Below are positions 1 to 44,563 of a stretch of 44,563 bases of DNA, one piece after another. This DNA is from Escherichia phage vB-Eco-KMB14: the sequence record OR424384.1; one strand, written 5' to 3'. The position numbers and the translations under genes were made by a program. The notes beneath the pieces are model-generated. The model was not told the DNA's origin. It searched no databases and worked only from the letters and a program-made list of their open reading frames with translations. Each line of letters begins with the position of its first letter. The first letter of the stretch is position 1.

Positions 1-94
1 GAGCGTTTGACAGGGTGGGCGTGGGTGGGCTATCTGTTCGTTTCGCCTAGCGGCTACACTCACTGGCTAACTTGCGCTACGTTCACTCGCTCAC

Positions 95-230
95 GTGTAC
101 CTTAGGTTGTTCCTTGATGGATAGCTTAGGTTAACCTTAGTGGACTACCTTAGTTAAAGCCTTAGTGCTTATCTTAGTAATAGCTTAGTAGTATACCTTA
201 GTAAGTCTTAGTGTCTTCTCTTAGTGATTG
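95..230. repeat. Array of about 10 short CTTAGT-type repeats (ccttagt/gcttagt/tcttagt) spaced 10-13 bp near the left genome end
   Basis: Direct reading: the motif recurs at about 100,124,137,149,160,172,183,196,205,217. Analogous to the CCTAAAG-type repeat arrays next to the terminal repeat in T7. Confidence 0.5.
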
Positions 231-421
231 CACATGCAAGCATGTAAGATGCCATTAGGTCGCGGTCGGTAGACCGCTAAAGAAAGAGAATAGTAATAAG
301 ATGCAGTAGGAGGAACACCGGAAACCTAGCCAACCTAGCCTATCCTAGCTCTGTATCTATTGCTTTTCCTTAGTCTCACATGTTAGACAACCTATCTTAT
401 TCTTAGTGATGATAACTTAGT

Positions 422-5839: not shown

Positions 5840-5891
5840 ACCTACTACCGGTAACATTTCATTAACATAAAGTGTCTCACATGTGAGACTT

Positions 5892-5911
5892 ATTTACCGG
5901 ACACTATAGGA
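5892..5911 (+). promoter_or_regulatory. Phage-RNAP promoter (ATTTACCGGACACTATAGGA)
   Basis: Consensus match; first of a twin pair downstream of the RNAP gene. Confidence 0.5.
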
Positions 5912-6072
5912 TAGCCGTCGGAGACGGGAAAGAAAGGGAAGATAAAGGATATAAAGGAAGTAATAGGTATTAAAGGTTATATAGGTTATCTAGGAATACC
6001 TATTACCTTCTTCTTTCCTCTTATTACCACTTAGAGGAAGGGCAGAGCTAGGTTGTCTCACATGTGAGACTT

Positions 6073-6093
6073 ATTTACCGGACAGTATAGATA
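6073..6093 (+). promoter_or_regulatory. Phage-RNAP promoter variant (ATTTACCGGACAGTATAGATA)
   Basis: One substitution in the conserved core (CAGTATAG); second of the twin pair. Confidence 0.35.
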
Positions 6094-6120: not shown

Positions 6121-6249
6121 ATGCGTAACTTTGAGAAGATGACCCGTAAAGCTAACCGTTTTGACATGGAAGAAGGGCAGAAGAAAGGCAAGAAGCTGAA
6201 TAAACCTGTCCGTGACCGTGCATCTAAACGCGCTGCGTGGGAGTTCTAA
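6121..6249 (+). CDS. gp1.1-like small basic protein (42 aa), not in the ORF track
   Basis: Translation MRNFEKMTRKANRFDMEEGQKKGKKLNKPVRDRASKRAAWEF resembles T7 gene 1.1 in sequence, length and position; RBS ggag. Confidence 0.7.
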   Translation: MRNFEKMTRKANRFDMEEGQKKGKKLNKPVRDRASKRAAWEF

Positions 6250-6252
6250 GTT

Positions 6253-8241
6253 ATGGCTATTATTCAGAATGTACCGTGTCCTGCTTGCCAAAAGAACGGA
6301 CATGATATTACTGGCAATCATTTAATGATCTTTGACGACGGGGCAGGGTACTGTAACCGTGGTCACTTCCATGATAACGGTAAACCTTATTACCACAAGC
6401 CGGAAGGTGGCATCGAGATAACCGAGTTACCTATTACTGGCAATATCAAATATACACCTTCTCAATTCAAAGAAATGGAGAAGGAAGGGAAGATAAGCGA
6501 CCCTAAGCTACGCGCCATCGCACTTGGTGGTATGCGTATGAAAGACCGTTGGGAGGTTATGAATGAGCAAGAAAGGGCAGACCAAGAAGCAGAGTGGAAA
6601 CTTGATGTTGAATGGTTTCTCACGCTTAAGCGTAAGAACCTTGTATCCCGTCACATTCGAGGTGACATCGCAGCAATGTACGATGTGCGCGTTGGACACG
6701 ATGAAGAGGGAAGAGTCAACCGTCACTATTATCCACGATATGAAAAGGGTGTGTTTGTTGGAGCAAAATGCCGGACGTTGCCGAAGGATTTTAAGTTCGG
6801 ACACCTAGGTAAACTCTTTGGTATGCAAGACCTTTTCGGTATGAACACTTTGTCTCACGTGTTAGACAAGGGGAGACGAAAGGATTGCTTGCTTATTGTA
6901 GGCGGTGAACTTGATGCACTAGCAGCGCAGCAGATGCTCCTTGATTCTGCCAAAGGTACTAAGTGGGAAGGTCAGCCATACCATGTATGGTCTGTCAATA
7001 AAGGTGAGTCTTGCCTTGAAGAGATAGTGCAAAACCGTGAGCACATAGCCCAATTCAAGAAGATTATATGGGGCTTTGATGGCGACGAGGTGGGGCAGAA
7101 GCAGAACCAACAAGCTGCTCGCCTGTTTCCTGGCAAATCCTACATCCTCGAATATCCATCTGGTTGCAAAGATGCTAACAAGGCATTGATGGCTGGCAAG
7201 GCTAAAGAGTTTGTAGATGCATGGTTTAATGCCAAGTCATCTGATGAAGTCTTTGGTAGCCAGATTAAATCTATCGCATCTCAAAGGGATAAGCTCAAGG
7301 CTGCACGTCCAGAGCAAGGACTATCATGGCCTTGGCCTAAGCTGAACAAGGTAACGCTAGGTATTCGTAAGAACCAACTTATCATTGTAGGCGCAGGCTC
7401 TGGTGTAGGTAAGACTGAGTTCCTTCGTGAAGTAGTTAAGCACCTCATTGAAGAACACGGTGAATCTGTAGGCATCATTTCTACAGAAGACCCGATGGTC
7501 AAGGTGTCCCGTGCTTTTATCGGCAAGTGGATTGATAAGCGTATTGAGTTACCGCCAACCAACGACCCGAAAGAAGATGGATACCGTGAGGTGTTCGACT
7601 ACACCGAGGAAGAGGCTAACGCCGCCATTGATTATGTAGCTGATACAGGTAAGCTGTTTGTAGCTGACCTAGAGGGTGACTATTCGATGGAAAAGGTAGA
7701 GCAAACTTGCCTAGAGTTTGAGGCTATGGGCATTTCTAATATCATCATTGATAACTTAACGGGGATTAAATTAGATGAGCGTGCTTTTGGTGGGAAGGTT
7801 GGTGCACTTGATGAATGCGTCAAGCGGATTGGTACTATCAAAGACCGACACCCGGTTACTATATTCCTTGTATCACACCTTACACGTCCTCCGGCAAACC
7901 GTACCCAACACGAAGAAGGTGGCGAGGTTATCCTTTCTGACTTCCGAGGTTCAGGCGCTATCGGATTCTGGGCATCTTACGCCTTGGGGATTGAGCGTAA
8001 TACAAGAGCTGAAACGCTTGATGAACGGACTACCACGTACATCTCATGTGTCAAAGACCGCGACCAAGGTATCTACACTGGAACCAAGGTCATGCTTAAG
8101 GGTGACATTCAAACCGGACGTTTAATGGAACCACAAGCCCGTACTAAGTCATTTGATACAGGTGAAGCAAGGCAACAAGAAGTGCCGGATTTACCGGACA
8201 CTATAGAAGAGACAACTTTTGACGATGAACAGGAGTTTTAA
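6253..8241 (+). CDS. DNA primase/helicase (T7 gp4-like, 662 aa) with acidic C-terminal tail ending in Phe
   Basis: N-terminal Cys4 zinc ribbon (CPACQ...CNRGH), Walker A GAGSGVGKT, C-terminus ...TTFDDEQEF. Confidence 0.95.
   Translation: MAIIQNVPCPACQKNGHDITGNHLMIFDDGAGYCNRGHFHDNGKPYYHKPEGGIEITELPITGNIKYTPSQFKEMEKEGKISDPKLRAIALGGMRMKDRWEVMNEQERADQEAEWKLDVEWFLTLKRKNLVSRHIRGDIAAMYDVRVGHDEEGRVNRHYYPRYEKGVFVGAKCRTLPKDFKFGHLGKLFGMQDLFGMNTLSHVLDKGRRKDCLLIVGGELDALAAQQMLLDSAKGTKWEGQPYHVWSVNKGESCLEEIVQNREHIAQFKKIIWGFDGDEVGQKQNQQAARLFPGKSYILEYPSGCKDANKALMAGKAKEFVDAWFNAKSSDEVFGSQIKSIASQRDKLKAARPEQGLSWPWPKLNKVTLGIRKNQLIIVGAGSGVGKTEFLREVVKHLIEEHGESVGIISTEDPMVKVSRAFIGKWIDKRIELPPTNDPKEDGYREVFDYTEEEANAAIDYVADTGKLFVADLEGDYSMEKVEQTCLEFEAMGISNIIIDNLTGIKLDERAFGGKVGALDECVKRIGTIKDRHPVTIFLVSHLTRPPANRTQHEEGGEVILSDFRGSGAIGFWASYALGIERNTRAETLDERTTTYISCVKDRDQGIYTGTKVMLKGDIQTGRLMEPQARTKSFDTGEARQQEVPDLPDTIEETTFDDEQEF
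8189..8209 (+). promoter_or_regulatory. Phage-RNAP promoter embedded in the 3' end of the primase/helicase gene
   Basis: ATTTACCGGACACTATAGAAG consensus match. Confidence 0.5.
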
Positions 8242-8402
8242 TGGAAATTATTAAACCAGTATTGAATATCGGTATTGAGATCCTATTCATGCTTGTGATC
8301 GCAGATTATGCTGCACGATATGGCTTCAAGAAAGCAGTGAAACTTATCGTTGCATCTGGTTTTATGATGTCAATGTTCTTTATTGTAACACGCCTTATCT
8401 AG
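8241..8402 (+). CDS. Small hydrophobic membrane protein (53 aa), not in the ORF track
   Basis: ATG overlaps the primase stop; RBS aggag; translation MEIIKPVLNIGIEILFMLVIADYAARYGFKKAVKLIVASGFMMSMFFIVTRLI. Confidence 0.45.
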   Translation: MEIIKPVLNIGIEILFMLVIADYAARYGFKKAVKLIVASGFMMSMFFIVTRLI

Positions 8403-8415
8403 TGTATTTATCAGG

Positions 8416-8446
8416 GCTTGTCTCACATGTGAGACAGGCTCTTATT
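8416..8446 (+). terminator. Conserved palindrome hairpin (GTCTCACATGTGAGAC core) followed by a T-rich tract
   Basis: gcttgtctcacatgtgagacaggc then tcttatt; one of seven copies of the same palindrome. Confidence 0.45.
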
Positions 8447-9387: not shown

Positions 9388-9553
9388 ACATAGTCTTAGA
9401 ATGTTCGATGGTCATGAAGACCTGCAAGCCAAGATTACTAACCAAGCCTTCCTGTTCGCACAGTTAACTATGGCTGAGGCCAAGAAGAATAGTCTCACTC
9501 GTGAACAGGTTATCAAGGAAAGTGAAGTGAAACGTAAGATTCGCAGTCGATAA
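9377..9553 (+). CDS. Small hypothetical protein (58 aa), not in the ORF track
   Basis: ATG overlaps the end of the preceding ORF; the ORF ends just before a terminator-like hairpin. Confidence 0.35.
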   Translation: MQNKHSLRMFDGHEDLQAKITNQAFLFAQLTMAEAKKNSLTREQVIKESEVKRKIRSR

Positions 9554-9560
9554 GTCAAGG

Positions 9561-9590
9561 GTTGTCTCACGTGTGAGACAGCCTTTTATC
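9561..9590 (+). terminator. Conserved palindrome hairpin (GTCTCACGTGTGAGAC) plus T-run; rho-independent terminator-like
   Basis: gttgtctcacgtgtgagacagcc followed by ttttatc. Confidence 0.5.
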
Positions 9591-12456: not shown

Positions 12457-12572
12457 TGGATAGGCTTGACATTGTTTACCTATTCTTCACTTTCTTTCTT
12501 GTATTTCTTATGATTGCTTGTTACGGAAGTATGCAGGTAAATATACCTGATGAAGAGGAAGGATACGACTGA
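12456..12572 (+). CDS. Small membrane protein (38 aa), not in the ORF track
   Basis: ATG overlaps the DNAP stop (tgATGg); hydrophobic core IVYLFFTFFLVFLMIACYG. Confidence 0.35.
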   Translation: MDRLDIVYLFFTFFLVFLMIACYGSMQVNIPDEEEGYD

Positions 12573-12630
12573 GTTATACTCAAGGTCACTTACGAGTGGC
12601 CTTTATGGATAACTTAACTAAGGAAATATT

Positions 12631-12891
12631 ATGATTAAATACACTGCTTATCAGTTAACTAAAGACCATAAGATAGGTATTGAGGTTAAGGCTTGGGAGC
12701 GAGGTCATATCTCTGGAGTAATAGAGGTGCGTTCCAAGGAAGGTATGATGATTAGAAGACACTTTAGTTTCGCTAAATCTACTTGTAAGCATTTAACAGA
12801 GGAACAATTCTTACATCATATTATTAACAATATTAAAGCTATCCAGCCTTATGCCAAGCAAGTTGTAGGTAATGTCACAGTAGTACATTGA
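12631..12891 (+). CDS. Hypothetical protein (86 aa)
   Basis: RBS aaggaa; its last 21 nt are part of the duplicated 105-bp unit. Confidence 0.6.
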   Translation: MIKYTAYQLTKDHKIGIEVKAWERGHISGVIEVRSKEGMMIRRHFSFAKSTCKHLTEEQFLHHIINNIKAIQPYAKQVVGNVTVVH

Positions 12892-12911
12892 TTTACTGGA
12901 CACTATAGAAG
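12891..12911 (+). promoter_or_regulatory. Phage-RNAP promoter (ATTTACTGGACACTATAGAAG), copy 1 of the duplicated unit
   Basis: Exact consensus. Confidence 0.7.
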
Positions 12912-13082
12912 GAAAGCCTAGATAATCTAGGTTTATAAGGTAGTATAGGTAATTAAGTAAATATAGGAGATATAAGCTATAGGTTCTGCCGTTATGGCTG
13001 GTATGTCTTCTATTGGTAGTATGTTTACAGGCAGCGGCTGCTGCACCGCTGCCTGTAAACATAATGTCACAGTAGTACATTG

Positions 13083-13103
13083 ATTTACTGGACACTATAG
13101 AAG
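13083..13103 (+). promoter_or_regulatory. Phage-RNAP promoter, copy 2 of the duplicated unit, driving the 13170 gene
   Basis: Exact consensus; followed by the leader and RBS ataggaga. Confidence 0.7.
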
Positions 13104-13169
13104 GAAAGCCTAGATAATCTAGGTTTATAAGGTAGTATAGGTAATTAAGTAAATATAGGAGATATAAAC

Positions 13170-13547
13170 ATGTCTATGGTAACTACTCTGGTATTTGTAG
13201 CTCAATACTTTCGTGGTCTGGCTAATAAGTTCAAGTCCAAGGCTATCAAAGCTATTGAGTCTCGCATCGAGGCAGTCCAGGCAGAGCAAGTTAAAGTTGA
13301 AGAACATCGTAGTTCTCAAATGATTGACTGCCACAATCGCTACTATGCATCTCGTGATGAACTGAATGCTCGTCAAGTCAAAGAGGTTGAAGAGATGCTG
13401 GCACGTCACCAGCAAGAGCGCGACAGCCTGAAAGCTGAATTTGAAGAGAACAAGGCATCCATCGCCCTTGTACATCAAGCCGCATCTGACAGCCTGAAGA
13501 AAGAGATTGTTATGCTGGAGATTGAGTTAGACAATCTTACCAAATAA
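13170..13547 (+). CDS. Hypothetical coiled-coil protein (125 aa)
   Basis: RBS aggaga; charged heptad-like sequence. Confidence 0.65.
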   Translation: MSMVTTLVFVAQYFRGLANKFKSKAIKAIESRIEAVQAEQVKVEEHRSSQMIDCHNRYYASRDELNARQVKEVEEMLARHQQERDSLKAEFEENKASIALVHQAASDSLKKEIVMLEIELDNLTK

Positions 13548-25237: not shown

Positions 25238-27639
25238 TGGAAGTACAAGGTTCATTAGGTAGACAAATCCAAGGGATTAGCCAGCAGCCGCCAGCGGTAC
25301 GCTTGGATGGTCAGTGCACAGCTATGGTTAATATGATACCTGATGTAGTGAATGGTACTCAATCACGCATGGGTACAACTCATATTGCAAAGATACTTGA
25401 TGCGGGGACTGATGACATGGCTATTCATCATTATCGCAGAGGTGATGGTGATGAAGAGTATTTCTTCACGTTGAAGAAAGGACAAGTTCCTGAGATATTT
25501 GATAAGTATGGGCGCAAATGTAATGTGACTTCACAAGATGCACCTATGACCTACCTCTCTGAGGTTGTTAATCCAAGGGAAGATGTACAATTCATGACGA
25601 TAGCTGATGTTACTTTCATGCTTAATCGTAGGAAAGTAGTTAAAGCTAGTAACAGGAAGTCACCTAAAGTTGGAAACAAAGCCATTGTGTTTTGTGCGTA
25701 TGGTCAATATGGTACATCTTATTCCATTGTAATTAATGGGACCAACGCTGCTAGTTTTAAAACACCGGATGGTGGAAGTGCAGACCATGTTGAACAAATT
25801 CGAACTGAACGTATCACTTCTGAATTGTACTCTAAGTTGCAGCAATGGAGCGGTGTGAGTGACTATGAAATACAAAGAGACGGTACTAGTATATTTATCG
25901 AGAGACGGGATGGTGCTAGCTTTACAATAACAACCACCGATGGTGCAAAAGGTAAGGACTTAGTGGCTATCAAGAATAAAGTTAGCTCTACTGACCTACT
26001 CCCTTCTCGTGCGCCTGCTGGTTATAAAGTACAAGTGTGGCCTACTGGCAGCAAACCTGAGTCTCGTTACTGGCTGCAAGCTGAGCCTAAAGAGGGAAAC
26101 CTTGTGTCTTGGAAAGAAACAATAGCTGCTGATGTATTACTTGGGTTTGATAAAGGCACAATGCCTTACATTATTGAACGTACAGATATCATCAACGGCA
26201 TAGCTCAATTCAAGATAAGACAAGGTGATTGGGAAGATCGTAAAGTAGGGGATGACTTGACTAACCCTATGCCCTCTTTTATTGATGAGGAGGTACCCCA
26301 GACAATAGGTGGAATGTTCATGGTGCAGAACCGCCTATGCTTTACAGCAGGTGAAGCGGTTATTGCTTCTCGTACATCATACTTCTTCGATTTCTTTCGT
26401 TATACGGTTATCTCTGCATTGGCAACTGACCCATTTGATATTTTCTCAGATGCTAGTGAAGTCTACCAGCTAAAACATGCAGTGACCTTAGATGGCGCTA
26501 CCGTGTTGTTCTCTGATAAGTCACAATTCATACTGCCAGGCGATAAGCCTTTAGAGAAGTCAAATGCACTGCTTAAGCCTGTTACAACATTTGAAGTGAA
26601 CAATAAAGTGAAGCCAGTAGTAACTGGTGAATCGGTAATGTTTGCCACTAATGATGGTTCTTACTCTGGTGTACGAGAGTTCTATACAGACTCTTATAGT
26701 GACACTAAGAAGGCACAAGCAATCACAAGTCATGTGAATAAACTCATCGAAGGTAACATTACCAACATGGCAGCAAGCACCAATGTCAACAGGTTACTTG
26801 TCACTACCGATAAGTATCGTAACATAATCTACTGCTACGATTGGTTATGGCAAGGAACAGACCGTGTACAATCAGCATGGCATGTATGGAAGTGGCCTAT
26901 AGGTACAAAGGTGCGAGGTATGTTTTATTCTGGTGAATTACTTTACCTGCTCCTTGAGAGAGGCAATGGTGTCTATCTGGAGAAGATGGATATGGGTGAT
27001 GCATTAACCTATGGTTTAAATGATCGCATCCGAATGGATAGACAGGCAGAGTTAATCTTCCAGCATTTCAAAGCAGAAGATGAATGGGTATCTGAACCGC
27101 TCCCTTGGGTTCCTACTAATCCAGAACTTTTAGATTGCATCTTAATCGAGGGTTGGGATTCATATATTGGTGGTTCTTTCCTATTCAAATACAACCCCGG
27201 TGATAACACCTTGTCTACAACCTTTGATATGCATGATGATAGCCACGTAAAAGCGAAGGTTATTGTTGGTCAGATTTACCCTCAAGAGTTTGAACCAACA
27301 CCTGTAGTTATCAGAGATAGGCAAGACCGTGTATCCTATATTGATGTACCTGTTGTGGGATTAGTTCACCTTAATCTTGATATGTATCCTGATTTCTCCG
27401 TGGAGGTTAAGAATGTGAAGAGTGGTAAAGTACGCAGGGTGCTAGCGTCAAACCGTATAGGTGGTGCTCTCAACAATACAGTAGGTTATGTTGAACCAAG
27501 AGAGGGTGTCTTCAGATTCCCACTGAGAGCTAAGAGTACGGATGCTGTTTATCGTATTATTGTAGAATCACCTCACACATTCCAGCTCCGCGATATTGAG
27601 TGGGAAGGGAGCTACAATCCAACCAAAAGGAGGGTCTAA
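25237..27639 (+). CDS. Tail tubular protein B (gp12-like), 800 aa
   Basis: Size and position; ATG at 25237 follows RBS ggagga and overlaps the upstream stop. Confidence 0.8.
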   Translation: MEVQGSLGRQIQGISQQPPAVRLDGQCTAMVNMIPDVVNGTQSRMGTTHIAKILDAGTDDMAIHHYRRGDGDEEYFFTLKKGQVPEIFDKYGRKCNVTSQDAPMTYLSEVVNPREDVQFMTIADVTFMLNRRKVVKASNRKSPKVGNKAIVFCAYGQYGTSYSIVINGTNAASFKTPDGGSADHVEQIRTERITSELYSKLQQWSGVSDYEIQRDGTSIFIERRDGASFTITTTDGAKGKDLVAIKNKVSSTDLLPSRAPAGYKVQVWPTGSKPESRYWLQAEPKEGNLVSWKETIAADVLLGFDKGTMPYIIERTDIINGIAQFKIRQGDWEDRKVGDDLTNPMPSFIDEEVPQTIGGMFMVQNRLCFTAGEAVIASRTSYFFDFFRYTVISALATDPFDIFSDASEVYQLKHAVTLDGATVLFSDKSQFILPGDKPLEKSNALLKPVTTFEVNNKVKPVVTGESVMFATNDGSYSGVREFYTDSYSDTKKAQAITSHVNKLIEGNITNMAASTNVNRLLVTTDKYRNIIYCYDWLWQGTDRVQSAWHVWKWPIGTKVRGMFYSGELLYLLLERGNGVYLEKMDMGDALTYGLNDRIRMDRQAELIFQHFKAEDEWVSEPLPWVPTNPELLDCILIEGWDSYIGGSFLFKYNPGDNTLSTTFDMHDDSHVKAKVIVGQIYPQEFEPTPVVIRDRQDRVSYIDVPVVGLVHLNLDMYPDFSVEVKNVKSGKVRRVLASNRIGGALNNTVGYVEPREGVFRFPLRAKSTDAVYRIIVESPHTFQLRDIEWEGSYNPTKRRV

Positions 27640-28361
27640 TGGCTATAGGTTCTGCCGTTATGGCTGGTATGTCTTCTATTGGTAGTATGTTTACAGGCAG
27701 CGGTGCAGCAGCCGCTGCTGGAGGTGCTGCCGCAGGTGGCGGAGGCTTGCTAGGTTCTCTAGGTGGCTTCCTAAGCGGCTCTACTGCTGGCTTCTCTAAT
27801 GCTGGGCTTCTTGGTGCTGGCCTTCAAGGTTTAGGCTTGATTGGTGATCTCTTTGGTGGAAGTGATGAAGCCAAGGCAATGAAGAAAGCACAAGAAGAAC
27901 AGTGGCGGCAGCAACTTATTGCTACACAAGAAGCATACAAAACAGTAGCAGATGCAGAGCGTTCTGCTGCTAAACAATATCATGCAGATGCAATAAGCAA
28001 TCAGGCTTCACTACTACAGCAGCGAGCACAGGTTGCATTACTAGCAGGTGCTACTGGTACTGGTGGTAACTCTGTATCTTCTATGCTGAATGACTTAGCA
28101 GCAGAGGGCGGGAGGAACCAGAGTACAATTATTGATAACTATGAGAATCAGAAGATTAACTTCACCAATCAGCTTAAGTCTATCCAGCGAGGTGGACAGA
28201 TGCAGATGCGTGAGTTTAAGAAGCCTTCTGCCGTGAGCACCTTGGTGCAAGGTATACCGAGTCTGGCATCTGCCTATGTAACAGGTAGTAAGTCCGGCAT
28301 GGCTTTAGGTAAAGCTTTAACTGATTCTCGTACATATTCATCTGGAACAAGAGGTATTTAA
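27639..28361 (+). CDS. Internal virion protein A (Gly/Ala-rich N-terminus), 240 aa
   Basis: ATG at 27639 follows RBS ggaggg. Its 5' end (27642-27711) is the source of the ectopic insert at 12976-13062. Confidence 0.7.
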   Translation: MAIGSAVMAGMSSIGSMFTGSGAAAAAGGAAAGGGGLLGSLGGFLSGSTAGFSNAGLLGAGLQGLGLIGDLFGGSDEAKAMKKAQEEQWRQQLIATQEAYKTVADAERSAAKQYHADAISNQASLLQQRAQVALLAGATGTGGNSVSSMLNDLAAEGGRNQSTIIDNYENQKINFTNQLKSIQRGGQMQMREFKKPSAVSTLVQGIPSLASAYVTGSKSGMALGKALTDSRTYSSGTRGI

Positions 28362-31309
28362 TGGCAATTGAGCGACAAGCAGTACAAGGTCTGCCACAAG
28401 TGCAGGCCACTTCTCCTAATGTCATGACCTTTGCACCTCAGCAAGTTGGAGGTGTGGAGGCTGGCGTAGCTTCTACCTCCGGTAGTCGATTTATCGAAGA
28501 CCTTATTCGAGCAGCCAGTAGTGTAGCTGATGTTACCACGGGTATCCTTAATCAGAAGATTGAGGAGGATAAGGTTGTTCAAATGGAACGGGCATATAAT
28601 GGATTAATGCCCTCTGAGGATGCAACTCGTGGTGGCGCTCGTGCTAACATGCTTGTCAAAGCTCAACTGCTAGCTAATGATGAAGCAGCACGAATGAAAG
28701 ACATGGCTACTCGTTTCCAAGGAACGGATGACGAGTGGACACAACTTATGGTTGACTCTCGTAATGAGATGCAGAATAAGCTGTTCCAGCAATACCCTGA
28801 GTTGCAAGGTGACAAAGATACTATGCGTATGGTCACTAATGTCTTCCAAGAACAGCAGCCTCAGATTTGGGCTACACGAACCCAGCATAAACTTGACCGT
28901 GAACAAGCAGACCGTGAGGATACCTTTGACGGGCGAGTGGCTTCTACTTGGGATTCTAATATTGACCCTGAAGCCTCTGGCTATGCTTTACAGGAACGAA
29001 TCCGCGAAGGTCTTACTCAAGGATTACTACCTGAACAGATGCACAAGAAGTTAGTCCAGCGAGCAATTTCACTTGCACAAGGCGGTGATGTTAGCATGGC
29101 TGAAGCCCTGAAGTATGTGAAGGACGATAAGGGTGTTTCTGTTTATGCTAAGAATCCACAGCTTATCACAGCCATCACTAGTGGTAATGCAGTTTGGGCT
29201 AGGAATAATGTAGCTGATGTAACTCGTATGTCTTTCGAAGTTAAAGAATCATACCTTGCAGGTGATTTAACTGATGAAGAATTGTTGGAACGAGCACAGC
29301 ACATTAATAATCTGACAGGTAACTCTGTCTTCTCTAACCCAGAACTAGAGGCACTGATGCGCCAACGAGCTAAGCAGAATGCAGAGCTAGGTGCAATGCA
29401 GGATATGCGCCGTGAGCTTTACTCCGACCGCCTGACTGGCTTCCAAGGTAAGACTGATAAAGAGAAGAAGGCTTACATTGATGTTATCAAACAAGATAGC
29501 CAACTTTATGCAGACCAGCAAATCAAACAACGTGGCTTGGACCCTTACAGTCAAGAGGCTGAAGCTATTCGTGGTGCAGTGGAAGTGCAGCGCCTACAAT
29601 TCATGAACTCCAAAGGCTTAGTGGATGATACCTTTGAGTCTCGTATCAAAGCCATGGAATCTATGCTATCTCCTGAGCACTTTGCCAAGGGCGAACCACA
29701 AGAGTTGATGACTATTCGCCAGTTGTGGGAACAGTTGCCAGAAGAGAGCCGAGGTGTCTTTGGTGACACGGTGAATGGCTACATGGATAACTACAACACT
29801 GCACTACAAATGGGAGAGACACCTTTGCAGGCTGCAAGGTTTGCGCGTGAAGCACAGCAGAAATTCTCTCGTACTGAGAAGGAAACCAAGAAGTTCAACT
29901 CAGCTATTGGAGATGCACTGGATGAGGTATCTGGTGCTGGCTGGTTCGATGGTAAAACCGAAGTGTCAGACTTAGGTAAAGCTATTGCAGAAGAGGAGTT
30001 ACGAGCTAAGGCTAATATGCTGTGGTCTAGTGGTATGCGTAACATGGATTCCATCAAGAAGGCTTTAATTACTTGGGGCAATAAACGCTACACTCAAACA
30101 GAGGATGCAAAGACTTCCGGTGGCTATTTCATTAAAGGTGATTACACTTCTGCATCTGATATGCTTATGTCAGTTGGGAAAGGCGTAAATCCTACCGATG
30201 TACCTCTGGCGCTTGGTAGGTATGTAGAAACACAGATGCCAGAATTGAAGAAGGAGCTTCAAGAGTGGGAAACTAAAGATGATATATACATTGATTACAA
30301 TGAACAGAAAGGTACTTTCGTGATTCGTGCTGGTGCAGCAGGTCGCCCTCTTTCTGGAGTAATCCCTGTAACCTCTTTAGATACCACTTCACTACTAGAT
30401 TCTGCCTATCAGAAGAAAGTAGAGGAACGAGATAAAGGCGAGTATGTTCACCCTTATCGTACAGATATTGGTGCACAAGAGCCTATGCCAGCTAAACCAA
30501 CTGCCAAAGATATTGGTAAATTTGGACTAGCTAACTTCCTCATGTCTTCTGCTTTTGCTTCTGGTGAGAATCTGCCTTCTAACTTCGAGATTAACTATCG
30601 AGGTAATATGCAACAATTCTATGACAAGCTAGCTATGGATGAGAATAAAGATAAAGTTGGCTTTAATAAGGCAACTGGAACCTTTACTCCATATAAAGAT
30701 GCTCACGGTGAGTCTATCGGTTACGGTCATTTCTTAACGGAAGAAGAGAAGCGAAACGGGTATATTAAGATTGGTGATGAACTAGTTCCCTATCGAGGGT
30801 CTATGTCTCAGCTTACAGAGAGCAAGGCTCGCGCTCTTATGGAGCAAGATGCCAAGAAGCATGTGCCTCCTACTCGTGACTGGAAGATTCCGTTTGACCA
30901 GATGCATCCTGCACAGCAACGTGGCTTGCTGGATTTAACCTACAATTTAGGTAAAGGTGGAATCCAGAACTCACCGCGTGCTCTTGCTGCATTCAAAGCT
31001 GGTAAGCTTACGGAAGGCTTTATCGAAATGCTGGGCACTGCATCAAGTGAAGGTAAGCGTATCCCTGGTCTACTGAAGCGACGCGCTGAGGCATACAATA
31101 TGGCATCTGCTGGTGGTGTGCCTAAGATTACCGAAGTGGAGACTCGTGAAGATGGCTCCATGTGGGTTAGGTTTGGTGGACCTATGCCAGCAGGTTCTGT
31201 CTCGGCATGGATTCATAAACGTATTGGCGCGGATGGTTGGTATCAGGTTTATGAGGCTGCACCTACCAAGTTAGCTAAAGGTTCTAAGGTAGGTAAATTT
31301 AAGTTGTAG
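28361..31309 (+). CDS. Internal virion protein B with C-terminal lysozyme-like (T4-lysozyme/GH24-type) domain, 982 aa
   Basis: C-terminal segment YKDAHGESIGYGH...LLDLTYNLGKGG resembles the catalytic region of T4-type lysozymes. Confidence 0.75.
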   Translation: MAIERQAVQGLPQVQATSPNVMTFAPQQVGGVEAGVASTSGSRFIEDLIRAASSVADVTTGILNQKIEEDKVVQMERAYNGLMPSEDATRGGARANMLVKAQLLANDEAARMKDMATRFQGTDDEWTQLMVDSRNEMQNKLFQQYPELQGDKDTMRMVTNVFQEQQPQIWATRTQHKLDREQADREDTFDGRVASTWDSNIDPEASGYALQERIREGLTQGLLPEQMHKKLVQRAISLAQGGDVSMAEALKYVKDDKGVSVYAKNPQLITAITSGNAVWARNNVADVTRMSFEVKESYLAGDLTDEELLERAQHINNLTGNSVFSNPELEALMRQRAKQNAELGAMQDMRRELYSDRLTGFQGKTDKEKKAYIDVIKQDSQLYADQQIKQRGLDPYSQEAEAIRGAVEVQRLQFMNSKGLVDDTFESRIKAMESMLSPEHFAKGEPQELMTIRQLWEQLPEESRGVFGDTVNGYMDNYNTALQMGETPLQAARFAREAQQKFSRTEKETKKFNSAIGDALDEVSGAGWFDGKTEVSDLGKAIAEEELRAKANMLWSSGMRNMDSIKKALITWGNKRYTQTEDAKTSGGYFIKGDYTSASDMLMSVGKGVNPTDVPLALGRYVETQMPELKKELQEWETKDDIYIDYNEQKGTFVIRAGAAGRPLSGVIPVTSLDTTSLLDSAYQKKVEERDKGEYVHPYRTDIGAQEPMPAKPTAKDIGKFGLANFLMSSAFASGENLPSNFEINYRGNMQQFYDKLAMDENKDKVGFNKATGTFTPYKDAHGESIGYGHFLTEEEKRNGYIKIGDELVPYRGSMSQLTESKARALMEQDAKKHVPPTRDWKIPFDQMHPAQQRGLLDLTYNLGKGGIQNSPRALAAFKAGKLTEGFIEMLGTASSEGKRIPGLLKRRAEAYNMASAGGVPKITEVETREDGSMWVRFGGPMPAGSVSAWIHKRIGADGWYQVYEAAPTKLAKGSKVGKFKL

Positions 31310-31321
31310 TATCTAACTCAA

Positions 31322-31350
31322 GGCTTGTCTCACATGTGAGACAGGTCTTT
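31322..31350 (+). terminator. Conserved palindrome hairpin (GTCTCACATGTGAGAC) plus T-rich tract
   Basis: gcttgtctcacatgtgagacaggtc followed by tttat. Confidence 0.45.
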
Positions 31351-31373
31351 ATGATAGGCACTATGGAGGAATT

Positions 31374-35848: not shown

Positions 35849-36131
35849 ACATGCAGCTACAGAGGATGAGGTTGGCATTCTGCATGGTGCTATTACCAAA
35901 ATCTTCAATAAAAAAGCACAGGCAATACTGGACACTATAGAAGAAGACCCTGATGCAGCATTACATTTAGTGTCTGGTAAGGATATTGGTGCGATGTGTA
36001 AGTGGGTTCTTGATAACGGCATTACCGCCACACCTGCTGCACAGCAGGAAGAGTCCAAGTTATCTAAGCGCCTCAAGGCTATCCGAGAGGCATCCAGTGG
36101 TAAGATAATTCAATTCACTAAGGAGGATTGA
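35832..36131 (+). CDS. Putative terminase small subunit (about 99 aa, GTG start)
   Basis: GTG at 35832 follows RBS ggaggga; lies directly upstream of and overlapping the large terminase. Confidence 0.5.
   Translation: MSVHNKHAATEDEVGILHGAITKIFNKKAQAILDTIEEDPDAALHLVSGKDIGAMCKWVLDNGITATPAAQQEESKLSKRLKAIREASSGKIIQFTKED
35923..35943 (+). promoter_or_regulatory. Phage-RNAP promoter-like sequence embedded in the small terminase gene (CAATACTGGACACTATAGAAG)
   Basis: Core conserved; the -17 to -13 region diverges. Confidence 0.35.
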
Positions 36132-38029
36132 TGGCTAAGGCAAGAGAATCACAAGCGGAGGCTCTTGCCAGATGGGAGATGCTACAGGAGTTACAGCAGG
36201 CCTTTCCTTACACAGCGGAAGGTTTGCTTCTCTTTGCAGATACAGTTATTCATAACTTAATTGCAGGCAACCCTCATCTGATTCGTATGCAGGCGGATAT
36301 CTTGAAGTTCCTATTTTACGGACACAAGTACCGCCTCATCGAAGCGCCTCGTGGTATCGCTAAGACAACACTATCAGCAATCTATACGGTATTCCGTATT
36401 ATTCATGAACCGCATAAGCGTATCATGGTTGTGTCCCAAAACGCCAAGCGAGCAGAGGAAATCGCAGGTTGGGTAGTTAAAATCTTCCGTGGCTTAGACT
36501 TTCTTGAGTTTATGCTGCCGGATATCTACGCTGGGGACCGTGCATCCGTTAAGGCGTTTGAGATTCATTACACCCTACGTGGTAGTGATAAGTCTCCTTC
36601 TGTATCCTGTTACTCAATCGAAGCAGGTATGCAGGGTGCTCGTGCTGATATTATTCTAGCGGATGACGTAGAGTCGATGCAGAATGCTCGTACGGCAGCG
36701 GGCCGTGCCTTGCTTGAGGAACTGACTAAGGAGTTTGAATCTATCAACCAGTTTGGGGATATCATTTACCTTGGTACACCTCAGAACGTAAACTCTATCT
36801 ACAACAACCTACCTGCTCGTGGTTACTCTGTTCGTATCTGGACTGCGCGTTACCCTTCAGTAGAGCAAGAGCAATGTTATGGCGACTTCCTTGCACCTAT
36901 GATTGTTCAAGATATGAAGGACAACCCAGCACTTCGCTCAGGGTACGGGTTGGATGGTAATAGTGGTGCACCTTGTGCCCCTGAAATGTATGATGATGAA
37001 GTCCTGATTGAGAAGGAAATCTCTCAGGGTGCTGCTAAGTTCCAGCTTCAGTTCATGCTTAACACTCGCATGATGGATGCTGACAGATACCCATTACGCC
37101 TGAACAATCTAATCTTCACCTCGTTTGGTACAGAGGAAGTCCCTGTGATGCCTACGTGGAGTAATGATTCCATAAACATCATTGGTGATGCACCTAAGTA
37201 TGGTAACAAGCCTACGGATTTCATGTACAGACCTGTAGCTCGCCCATACGAATGGGGTGCTGTCTCCCGCAAGATTATGTATATTGACCCTGCGGGTGGT
37301 GGTAAGAACGGAGATGAGACGGGTGTAGCCATCGTATTCCTGCACGGCACATTCATTTATGTGTATCAGTGCTTTGGTGTACCTGGCGGATACCGAGAGT
37401 CGTCCCTGAATCGCATTGTGCAGGCCGCAAAGCAGGCGGGTGTTAAAGAGGTATTCATTGAGAAGAACTTTGGTCATGGCGCGTTTGAGGCGGTAATTAA
37501 GCCGTACTTTGAACGAGAGTGGCCTGTAACTCTGGAAGAGGATTACGCCACCGGACAGAAAGAATTGCGTATCATTGAGACGCTGGAGCCGCTCATGGCA
37601 GCCCATAGGCTTATCTTCAATGCAGAGATGGTGAAGTCAGACTTTGAGTCGGTACAGCACTATCCGCTTGAACTACGCATGTCCTACAGTCTTTTCAATC
37701 AAATGTCGAACATAACGATTGAGAAGAACAGCCTCCGGCACGATGACCGCCTAGACGCCCTGTATGGCGCTATACGGCAATTAACTTCTCAGATAGACTA
37801 TGACGAGGTTACACGGATTAATCGCCTCAGAGCGCAGGAGATGCGAGATTACATCCATGCTATGAACACACCTCATCTACGCAGGGCAATGCTATATGGG
37901 GATTACGGTACTGAGCGAAGAGTGACCAACACTTCCGTAGCGATGCAGCAGCGAGTTTACGGGCAGAACTACCGAAATAAATCGGCAAGCAGAAATACAC
38001 TTTCTGCAAGGATTTCAAGGACTTATTAA
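36128..38029 (+). CDS. Terminase large subunit (633 aa)
   Basis: Walker A-like PRGIAKTT; size and position as T7 gp19; RBS aaggagg. Confidence 0.9.
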   Translation: MMAKARESQAEALARWEMLQELQQAFPYTAEGLLLFADTVIHNLIAGNPHLIRMQADILKFLFYGHKYRLIEAPRGIAKTTLSAIYTVFRIIHEPHKRIMVVSQNAKRAEEIAGWVVKIFRGLDFLEFMLPDIYAGDRASVKAFEIHYTLRGSDKSPSVSCYSIEAGMQGARADIILADDVESMQNARTAAGRALLEELTKEFESINQFGDIIYLGTPQNVNSIYNNLPARGYSVRIWTARYPSVEQEQCYGDFLAPMIVQDMKDNPALRSGYGLDGNSGAPCAPEMYDDEVLIEKEISQGAAKFQLQFMLNTRMMDADRYPLRLNNLIFTSFGTEEVPVMPTWSNDSINIIGDAPKYGNKPTDFMYRPVARPYEWGAVSRKIMYIDPAGGGKNGDETGVAIVFLHGTFIYVYQCFGVPGGYRESSLNRIVQAAKQAGVKEVFIEKNFGHGAFEAVIKPYFEREWPVTLEEDYATGQKELRIIETLEPLMAAHRLIFNAEMVKSDFESVQHYPLELRMSYSLFNQMSNITIEKNSLRHDDRLDALYGAIRQLTSQIDYDEVTRINRLRAQEMRDYIHAMNTPHLRRAMLYGDYGTERRVTNTSVAMQQRVYGQNYRNKSASRNTLSARISRTY

Positions 38030-38048
38030 TTACTGGACACTATAGAAG
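38028..38048 (+). promoter_or_regulatory. Phage-RNAP promoter after the terminase gene
   Basis: AATTACTGGACACTATAGAAG; its first 24 transcribed nt resemble the leader of the 12891 promoter. Confidence 0.7.
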
Positions 38049-38186
38049 GAAGGCCCAGATAATAAGAGAAAATAATAGGTAATATATAGGTTAACCTAGG
38101 TTATATAGATATGCCTTAGTATGGGTGTACTCCTGTACACCCTATTCATTACTACCTTACTATATTTACATAATAGGAGAGAGACA

Positions 38187-44162: not shown

Positions 44163-44291
44163 ATGCTGAAAGATGGTTGGGTTTCATATGACCCTACAGA
44201 CCCTAAGAATTGGCTACAGGTTATCGCTATAGCTTGTGCAGGTAGCCTATTGGCTGCCCTGATGTATTCATTATGGATGTACACAAAGTAA
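44163..44291 (+). CDS. Small membrane protein (42 aa), not in the ORF track
   Basis: Strong RBS aaggagg 6 nt upstream; hydrophobic segment LQVIAIACAGSLLAALMYSLW. Confidence 0.45.
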   Translation: MLKDGWVSYDPTDPKNWLQVIAIACAGSLLAALMYSLWMYTK

Positions 44292-44299
44292 CCAAAGTC

Positions 44300-44563
44300 A
44301 AAATTTTGATGTAGGCGTGTGTCAGCTCTCTCGCCCTCGCCCTCGCCGGGTTGTCCCCATATGGGGTTGCTCGGCGGTTGGCCTAGGAATTGGGCGGGGC
44401 TGGGCCGATTTCATCGGGTGGGCCGAGGTCTGCCGAGGCTTGCTCTTAGTGGGAGCACAAGGAGAACGCCTAGGAAGCGCTAGGGCACGCCTTAGTATTG
44501 GACAAGGTGATTGCCTTAGTGCAACCGCTTAGGGCTTACACGGGCCGTTTTAGGGCCATTCCT
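44300..44563. repeat. GC-rich right-end region with GCCCTC repeats, palindrome CCCCATATGGGG and CTTAG-type repeats
   Basis: Composition shifts sharply from the rest of the genome: ctcgccctcgccctcgccgg, ccccatatgggg at 44355-44366, then gccttagt/gcttaggg motifs resembling the left-end array. Confidence 0.45.

Follow-up and report, generated by a model that had tools for sequence, protein, structure and literature searches.

We consider it likely that the DNA just upstream of gp15 in this phage genome preserves a real and recent rearrangement scar, private to the genome. A 105-bp unit consisting of a promoter, a leader and an RBS has been duplicated there, with 87 bp of templated filler between the copies, and the most likely source of the scar is an episode of DNA synthesis that jumped between templates three times. 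That this was a single event, that its origin was replicative and that the scar is close to neutral are all probable. The window, by which we mean the whole 44,563-bp stretch of DNA that was analysed, is a complete Vectrevirus genome (Autographiviridae, Molineuxvirinae; K1E/K1-5 group, SP6-related). The Vectrevirus genomes LI10P3, VEc3, K1E and K1-5 are collinear with it at 93-98.6% identity. The genome uses SP6-type promoters.

The duplicated promoter unit

An earlier note on this DNA had claimed that a 105-bp unit occurs twice. Direct comparison of 12871-12975 with 13063-13167 bore this out, with 105 of 105 nt identical, and a repeat search extended the match by 1 nt leftward, to 106 nt (12870-12975 and 13062-13167). 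We refer to the repeat as unit A. Its features, all on the + strand, are as follows.

12871..12975, +: unit A, copy 1; 105/105 nt identical to copy 2 (106-nt repeat family D4).
12891..12911, +: SP6-type phage RNAP promoter, copy 1, ATTTACTGGACACTATAGAAG; matches to the promoter core (repeat families D1-D3).
12917..12931, +: leader stem-loop CCTAGA-TAA-TCTAGG, copy 1; predicted by the MFE and the centroid fold alike.
12966..12969, +: orphaned RBS GGAG, copy 1; from the sequence and the ORF list, a start codon at usable spacing being absent.
13063..13167, +: unit A, copy 2, which supplies gp15 with its working promoter, leader and RBS; identical to copy 1 and collinear with the single copy of the relatives.

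The first 21 nt of copy 1 are the end of an 86-aa ORF (12631-12891), stop codon included; the phage promoter, its leader and the RBS come next. Transcription from this promoter presumably starts at G12908, a position that we take from the known SP6 promoter. The corresponding elements of copy 2 are a promoter at 13083-13103, a leader stem-loop at 13109-13123 and an RBS at 13158-13161; the last of these serves the ATG of gp15 at 13170 (gene 13170-13547). In an alignment with LF31P3 and K1E, the leader stem is kept in both phages and the loop differs. Unit A is thus a head-to-tail direct repeat that lies in an intergenic region and contains a complete phage RNAP promoter, with 87 bp of filler separating its copies. 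Both promoter copies are whole and identical, and the 86-aa ORF, gp15 and gp34 are all intact, so that no gene has been disrupted.

The rearrangement also creates a chimeric ORF of 29 codons on the + strand (12994-13083, MAGMSSIGSMFTGSGCCTAACKHNVTVVH), which is present in the ORF list. No Shine-Dalgarno motif stands at a proper distance from it in the sequence, and we believe that it is probably not translated.

The 86-aa ORF itself corresponds to phrog_35123 and gives a weak, below-threshold hint of PDDEXK_15. It belongs to a mosaic cassette (12571-13080): SP6, LF31P3, T147P1 and PSK8 have the 86-aa ORF in common, and its position in K1E and VEc3 is occupied by a 32-aa gp14 gene, homology restarting exactly at the promoter (13081).

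The filler and its gp34 donor

The 87 nt between the copies of unit A consist of two segments, both templated on gp34, which we designate X and Y. Their features and those of the donor are given below; the two palindromic elements have no strand.

12976..13037, +: X, a sense copy of gp34 codons 2-22 (27642-27703); 62/62 nt identical (repeat family D7).
13031..13063, +: Y, an antisense copy of gp34 27686-27718; 33 nt, 100% complementary (inverted pair I1).
27642..27718, +: donor segment in gp34 (ATG at 27639), intact and unchanged.
27697..27718, no strand: native quasi-palindrome GCAGCGG-TGCAGCAG-CCGCTGC in gp34, the putative strand-switch site; stem of 7-8 bp in an ssDNA fold.
13020..13063, no strand: perfectly paired 18-bp hairpin, 8-nt loop CTGCTGCA, formed by the ends of X and Y; in both the MFE and the centroid folds.

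The donor gene (27639-28361) encodes a 240-aa internal virion protein of the T7_gp14 family (PF24072, E = 9e-33; phrog_805), and it is gp34 in the K1E/K1-5 numbering. Its segment 27600-27760 is 100% identical to the homologous DNA of phages EC120, Sem1 and Sem2, and the quasi-palindrome occurs in VEc3 too.

The sense copy had been described earlier, and all 62 of its nucleotides agree with the donor. The antisense copy had been read as 25 nt, 13038-13062 being the reverse complement of 27687-27711; that match is exact, but it falls short of the full extent of the complementarity, which is 33 nt (13031-13063 against 27686-27718). The unambiguous part of Y is 13038-13062. The nucleotides at 13031-13037 (GCAGCGG) are common to X and Y, the antisense match beginning at 13031, before the end of the sense copy (13037), and those at 13062-13063 (TA) are common to Y and copy 2 of unit A. 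The 87 bp hold three junctions, which share 0 nt (12975/12976), 7 nt (sense/antisense, 13031-13037) and 2 nt (13062/13063, TA). Promoter and palindrome families aside, the 106-, 62- and 33-nt matches are the only long exact repeats in the window, and exact matches of these lengths cannot have arisen by chance in 44.5 kb.

The loop of the insert hairpin, CTGCTGCA, is the reverse complement of the native gp34 loop, TGCAGCAG. The arms, which measure 7 bp in gp34, have grown to 17 bp in the insert, or to 18 bp when the pair T13020-A13063 is included. The earlier descriptions of the promoter, the RBS, the 29-codon ORF and the hairpin were all correct, with the qualification that the stem in its context has 18 bp. 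The two arms of the insert extend for 62 and 25 nt, and both are genuine gp34 sequence. As RNA, the insert hairpin folds with -31.3 kcal/mol, against -16.8 for the native quasi-palindrome, and the fold of 12906-13090 has a z-score of -5.8. No U/T-run follows the hairpin (AATGTCACAGTAG / AATGTCACAG stands there), and a terminator scan does not report it. A search of Rfam returned only chance matches to miRNA hairpins, at 21 bits against gathering scores of 60-70.

One further observation concerns the heptamer TAAACAT. It forms the end of the insert (13056-13062) and recurs at 13165-13171, across the other ancestral breakpoint (GATA-TAAACAT-GTC); it is also found on the - strand at 27687-27693. 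The chance of such a coincidence was estimated at about 0.001 by Monte-Carlo simulation. It may be the trace of a first pairing between the two loci, or a product of chance.

Comparison with related phages

A comparison with related genomes for a single-copy promoter, which the earlier note had proposed, gave a uniform answer: one copy and no insert in all of them. A 341-nt query spanning the whole structure matched 103 related phage records, every one of which has one copy; none covers 80% or more of the query, and in each the alignment falls into two parts over about 149 nt (341 - 192). The alignment with LF31P3 and K1E likewise shows a single unit and no insert. Three contigs that encode an identical 86-aa upstream protein (two from Logan assemblies and one from an NCBI assembly) also carry a single unit; they are 96-99% identical to the window, and their intergenic region has 85 nt. 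One of these Logan contigs represents a different phage, 96-98% identical. At the nine loci that were fetched, an 18-mer from the leader occurs once in nine of nine, compared with twice in the window. The idea of a conserved functional element, which had been raised earlier, is thereby ruled out, since every relative checked has a single promoter copy.

The junctions themselves were sought by exact scans. The hairpin junction gave no match in IMG/VR, the JGI metagenomes or the GTDB genomes, and IMG/VR lacks both outer junctions as well. A positive control with the wild-type junction did retrieve two contigs from IMG/VR, each with one copy and no insert. A literature search for a described duplication in Vectrevirus gave nothing relevant. 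Because the relatives are single-copy and the junctions are absent from the scanned collections, the arrangement is private to this genome. Deletion of 12976-13167 in silico yields a genome of 44,371 bp with the usual architecture of the family. The repeated parts are 100% identical, whereas the relatives differ by 1-5%, and for this reason the event is dated as recent.

Among the related sequences is contig CCBI010000091.1 of GCA_000613105.1 (18,573 bp; also IMGVR_UViG_2627853805_000001), a Vectrevirus sequence. Around 11.2-14.6 kb of the window it shows 97-99% identity, and it probably derives from phage DNA co-sequenced with the sample.

Other promoters and features of the genome

When up to two mismatches were tolerated, the promoter core GACACTATAGAAG was matched 15 times in the whole window, against a chance expectation of 1.46; 14 of the matches lie on the + strand, and 8 are exact. 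The leader of the promoter at 38030 is 94% identical to that of unit A over 34 nt (38030-38063; GGAAGGCCCAGATAAT vs GGAAAGCCTAGATAAT), a resemblance that suggests a promoter-proximal leader motif common to the two loci.

A natural tandem pair of promoter-like sites, 5873-5909 and 6054-6090, lies just downstream of the RNA polymerase gene. The sites are 181 nt apart, the palindrome TGTCTCACATGTGAGAC stands ahead of each, and the spacer between them is purine- and AT-rich; the second copy reads GACAGTATAG. We take the layout of this pair to be like that of the T7 phi1.1A/1.1B primary replication origin. A different palindrome family, GTCTCACATGTGAGAC, flanked by G/C and followed by TTAT, occupies three intergenic sites (8400-8445, 9544-9589 and 31307-31352). 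These palindromes, which are conserved, probably serve the phage as transcription terminators or as sites of RNA processing.

No direct repeat of at least 24 nt was found to join the ends of the window (1-300 and 44260-44563). Position 257 of K1E aligns with position 1 of the window, and the terminal repeat expected for the Vectrevirus group seems to have been collapsed or trimmed in the record. The two HNH endonuclease genes of VEc3 (6396-6812 and 36367-36810) are absent from the window at 6126-6128 and 36131-36132; the difference is one of presence or absence of homing-endonuclease-like inserts.

A model of serial template switching

The features of the filler can be accommodated in a single path of synthesis. 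Written for the + strand, the nascent strand would have quit the gp15 leader after 12975, with no microhomology, and synthesis would have restarted on codon 2 of gp34, where 62 nt were copied. The 3' end of this copy, GCAGCGG, would then have re-paired over 7 nt with CCGCTGC on the opposite parental strand, in an inter-strand or "cross-fork" switch. Copying back for 25-26 nt would have inverted the 8-nt loop and lengthened the arms from 7 to 17-18 bp, and a return to the original locus 105 nt behind the point of exit, over the 2 nt TA, would have left unit A duplicated. Mirror-image steps on the - strand are just as possible.

The central step of this path, a replicative template switch onto the opposite strand, had already been put forward in the earlier note. 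It is supported by the 7-nt microhomology, the native quasi-palindrome, the inverted loop and the extended arms. The strict form of the proposal, a self-primed snap-back with the nascent strand as its own template, is excluded: the loop has the wrong orientation, and the longer arm runs on into genuine gp34 rather than into the upstream sequence of the nascent strand itself. Since both arms carry genuine gp34 sequence, they were copied from the gp34 duplex, one per strand. Self-folding would have kept the native orientation of the loop and would not have extended the second arm with gp34, which argues for a cross-fork switch rather than a snap-back.

A switch of this kind has precedents. The mechanism was first proposed by Ripley (1982) for phage T4 and was treated further by Rosche, Trinh and Sinden in 1997 (both reviewed in PMC8604942). 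An inter-strand switch that begins in the first arm of an inverted repeat leads to inversion of the spacer and extension of the arms, as in a yeast example in which arms of 5 bp became 16 bp, and it is the spacer inversion that separates this intermolecular type from the intramolecular, snap-back type (PMC8604942). The event in the window is similar: its apparent starting point is the first arm of an imperfect inverted repeat native to gp34, the microhomology at the junction equals the arm (7 nt), the spacer is inverted, and the arms have been lengthened from 7 to 17-18 bp, making the palindrome perfect. It departs from the classic quasi-palindrome switch, in which synthesis goes back to its original template and the repeat is mutated where it stands; gp34 is untouched here, and the product lies 14.7 kb away, within a tandem duplication.

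In its other aspects, the scar resembles the rearrangements attributed to FoSTeS/MMBIR, serial template switching with templated insertions that is described mainly in human and cancer genomes (PMC5120786, PMC7025897). Common to both are several junctions per event, a net gain in copy number and short templated segments drawn from distant loci in direct and inverted orientation; the junction microhomologies, 0-7 nt in the window, may be a further likeness. The scale and setting are unlike, with 87-192 bp, a 44-kb phage and a T7-type replisome for which break-induced replication machinery is not known.

Events closer to home come from T7 itself. Illegitimate recombination at short repeats, leading to deletion or duplication, has reportedly been seen in T7, in the deletions of Studier and in work by Pierce, Kong and Masker in 1991. 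There, too, a T7-family replisome and recombination system rearranges DNA at very short homologies. Those events have a single junction at a direct repeat, whereas the scar has three, including one on an inverted repeat.

Several simpler routes were considered and rejected. Duplication by microhomology between the ATGTC repeats at the ends of unit A predicts the junction AAACATGTCACAG, which is not seen. Models with a junction at TAAACAT predict the order A-X-Y-GTCTATGG, without a duplication and with the start codon of gp15 severed from its RBS, and this order is not observed either. Engineering can be dismissed on the grounds that all 192 bp come from the phage's own genome, and the hairpin finds no support as a terminator or as a member of a known RNA family, as it lacks a U-tract and has only sub-threshold Rfam matches. 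Two points tell against serial switching as formulated above. Junction 1 is blunt and would fit end-joining better than re-priming by a polymerase, and the model leaves the TAAACAT coincidence unused, so that the real pathway may include an extra step.

Alternative explanations

Two of the competing explanations concern how the arrangement came to be in the record or in the population. It may be an artefact of assembly or library preparation, or a low-frequency variant that entered the consensus; chimeric molecules formed by amplification, MDA or ligation would have produced a cycle A -> XY -> A in the assembly graph, traversed once. We regard this as unlikely, although none of more than 100 relatives shares the arrangement, it is missing from all scanned collections, and the record, having no terminal direct repeat, is an assembler product rather than a finished end-to-end sequence. 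Inverted chimeras are typical of in-vitro amplification. Independent chimeras, however, would not place three specific junctions on one 87-bp piece that closes exactly on the same 105-bp unit, and single-molecule chimeras have negligible coverage. The switch also coincides with a native quasi-palindrome and has 7 nt of microhomology, as expected of a polymerase that switches on real template (though a polymerase in vitro could do likewise), and elsewhere the genome keeps its long ORFs intact and its collinearity with the relatives. It is quite unlikely, in our estimation, that the scar owes its presence to selection for a doubled strong promoter ahead of gp15 and the DNA-metabolism genes, or for a tandem-promoter replication origin, with the filler as a passenger. 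Both promoter copies are complete and identical, and the genome already has its natural tandem pair at 5873-6090. There is, moreover, an instructive parallel: during long-term adaptation of a rearranged T7 genome, a 154-bp tandem duplication that includes promoter phi13 rose into the population consensus of evolved T7:LME_2000, and its authors judged it likely to be regulatory (PMC3737178). That duplication and ours are alike in being head-to-tail, intergenic and about 100-150 bp long, in containing a complete phage RNAP promoter and in disrupting no gene. The T7 case is a plain tandem with documented selection, and the one in the window has 87 bp of ectopic filler. Its absence from the relatives gives no sign of recurrent or sustained selection, and the outcome of selection would be indistinguishable from a neutral hitch-hiker fixed by plaque purification.

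The remaining two explanations accept the scar as genuine and differ on its origin or its role. In a non-replicative origin, broken copies of a concatemer, one ending at 12975 and the other starting at 12871, would have been ligated around an 87-bp fragment of gp34 that had been strand-switched or folded back. The blunt junction 1 and the mere 2 nt shared at junction 3 are in keeping with ligation, and the relatives encode DNA ligase, an exonuclease and endonuclease VII (VEc3 annotation). Yet the 7-nt junction inside the filler still requires a template switch by a polymerase, and one continuous synthesis covers all junctions with fewer independent events. We therefore hold the ligation route to be very improbable, while noting that its end product is identical to that of serial switching and that the two give the same sequence. 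It is extremely improbable that the hairpin or a small transcript was retained for a function of its own, whether as a terminator or insulator, an RNase III site, a 33-nt antisense regulator of gp34 or a source of the 29-aa peptide. The hairpin is certainly very stable, it lies behind a strong promoter (z = -5.8 for 12906-13090), and 13031-13063 is complementary to the gp34 mRNA. It is conserved in no relative, though; the stem has no U-tract, the antisense segment is held in the stem by its own sense copy, the 29-codon ORF is devoid of an RBS, and the Rfam matches are at chance level, far below threshold.

Implications

From the layout of the sequence, gp15 and the genes downstream of it are expected to keep their normal promoter, leader and RBS and to gain a second, identical promoter upstream. 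Transcripts from promoter copy 1 would be expected to have a leader that is 192 nt longer and that includes the orphan RBS, the 18-bp hairpin and the small ORF. With the genes intact, the hairpin unlike a terminator and the antisense segment locked in the hairpin, extra transcription into gp15 and the downstream genes is the only plausible effect. The fact that no relative shares the duplication leaves no sign of selection. A function of the insert is not needed to explain its presence, and the scar is probably near-neutral rather than a functional element.

There is a very slim chance that the scar is not neutral. The upstream promoter could drive a short RNA, stabilised by the hairpin, with 33 nt antisense and 62 nt sense to gp34, or the tandem promoters could serve as a secondary origin. 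Such an RNA could tune the expression of gp34, an ejectosome protein, or act as a decoy or a processing site. Were this reading true, a template-switch accident would have made a new regulatory element in one step.

For annotation, the 29-codon ORF should not be called a gene, nor the hairpin a terminator, and the interval 12871-13167 is a site for the depositors to verify. The kinds of event involved, namely the quasi-palindrome switch, the serial-switch rearrangement and the tandem duplication of a promoter, are already known, and the window adds one example for work on mutational mechanisms and the evolution of phage genomes. If confirmed in reads, it would be a natural record of three successive template jumps by a T7-type replisome, one of them cross-strand at a quasi-palindrome. 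The scar would then illustrate a route by which phage promoters can be duplicated, and by which perfect hairpins and small chimeric ORFs may arise in one step.
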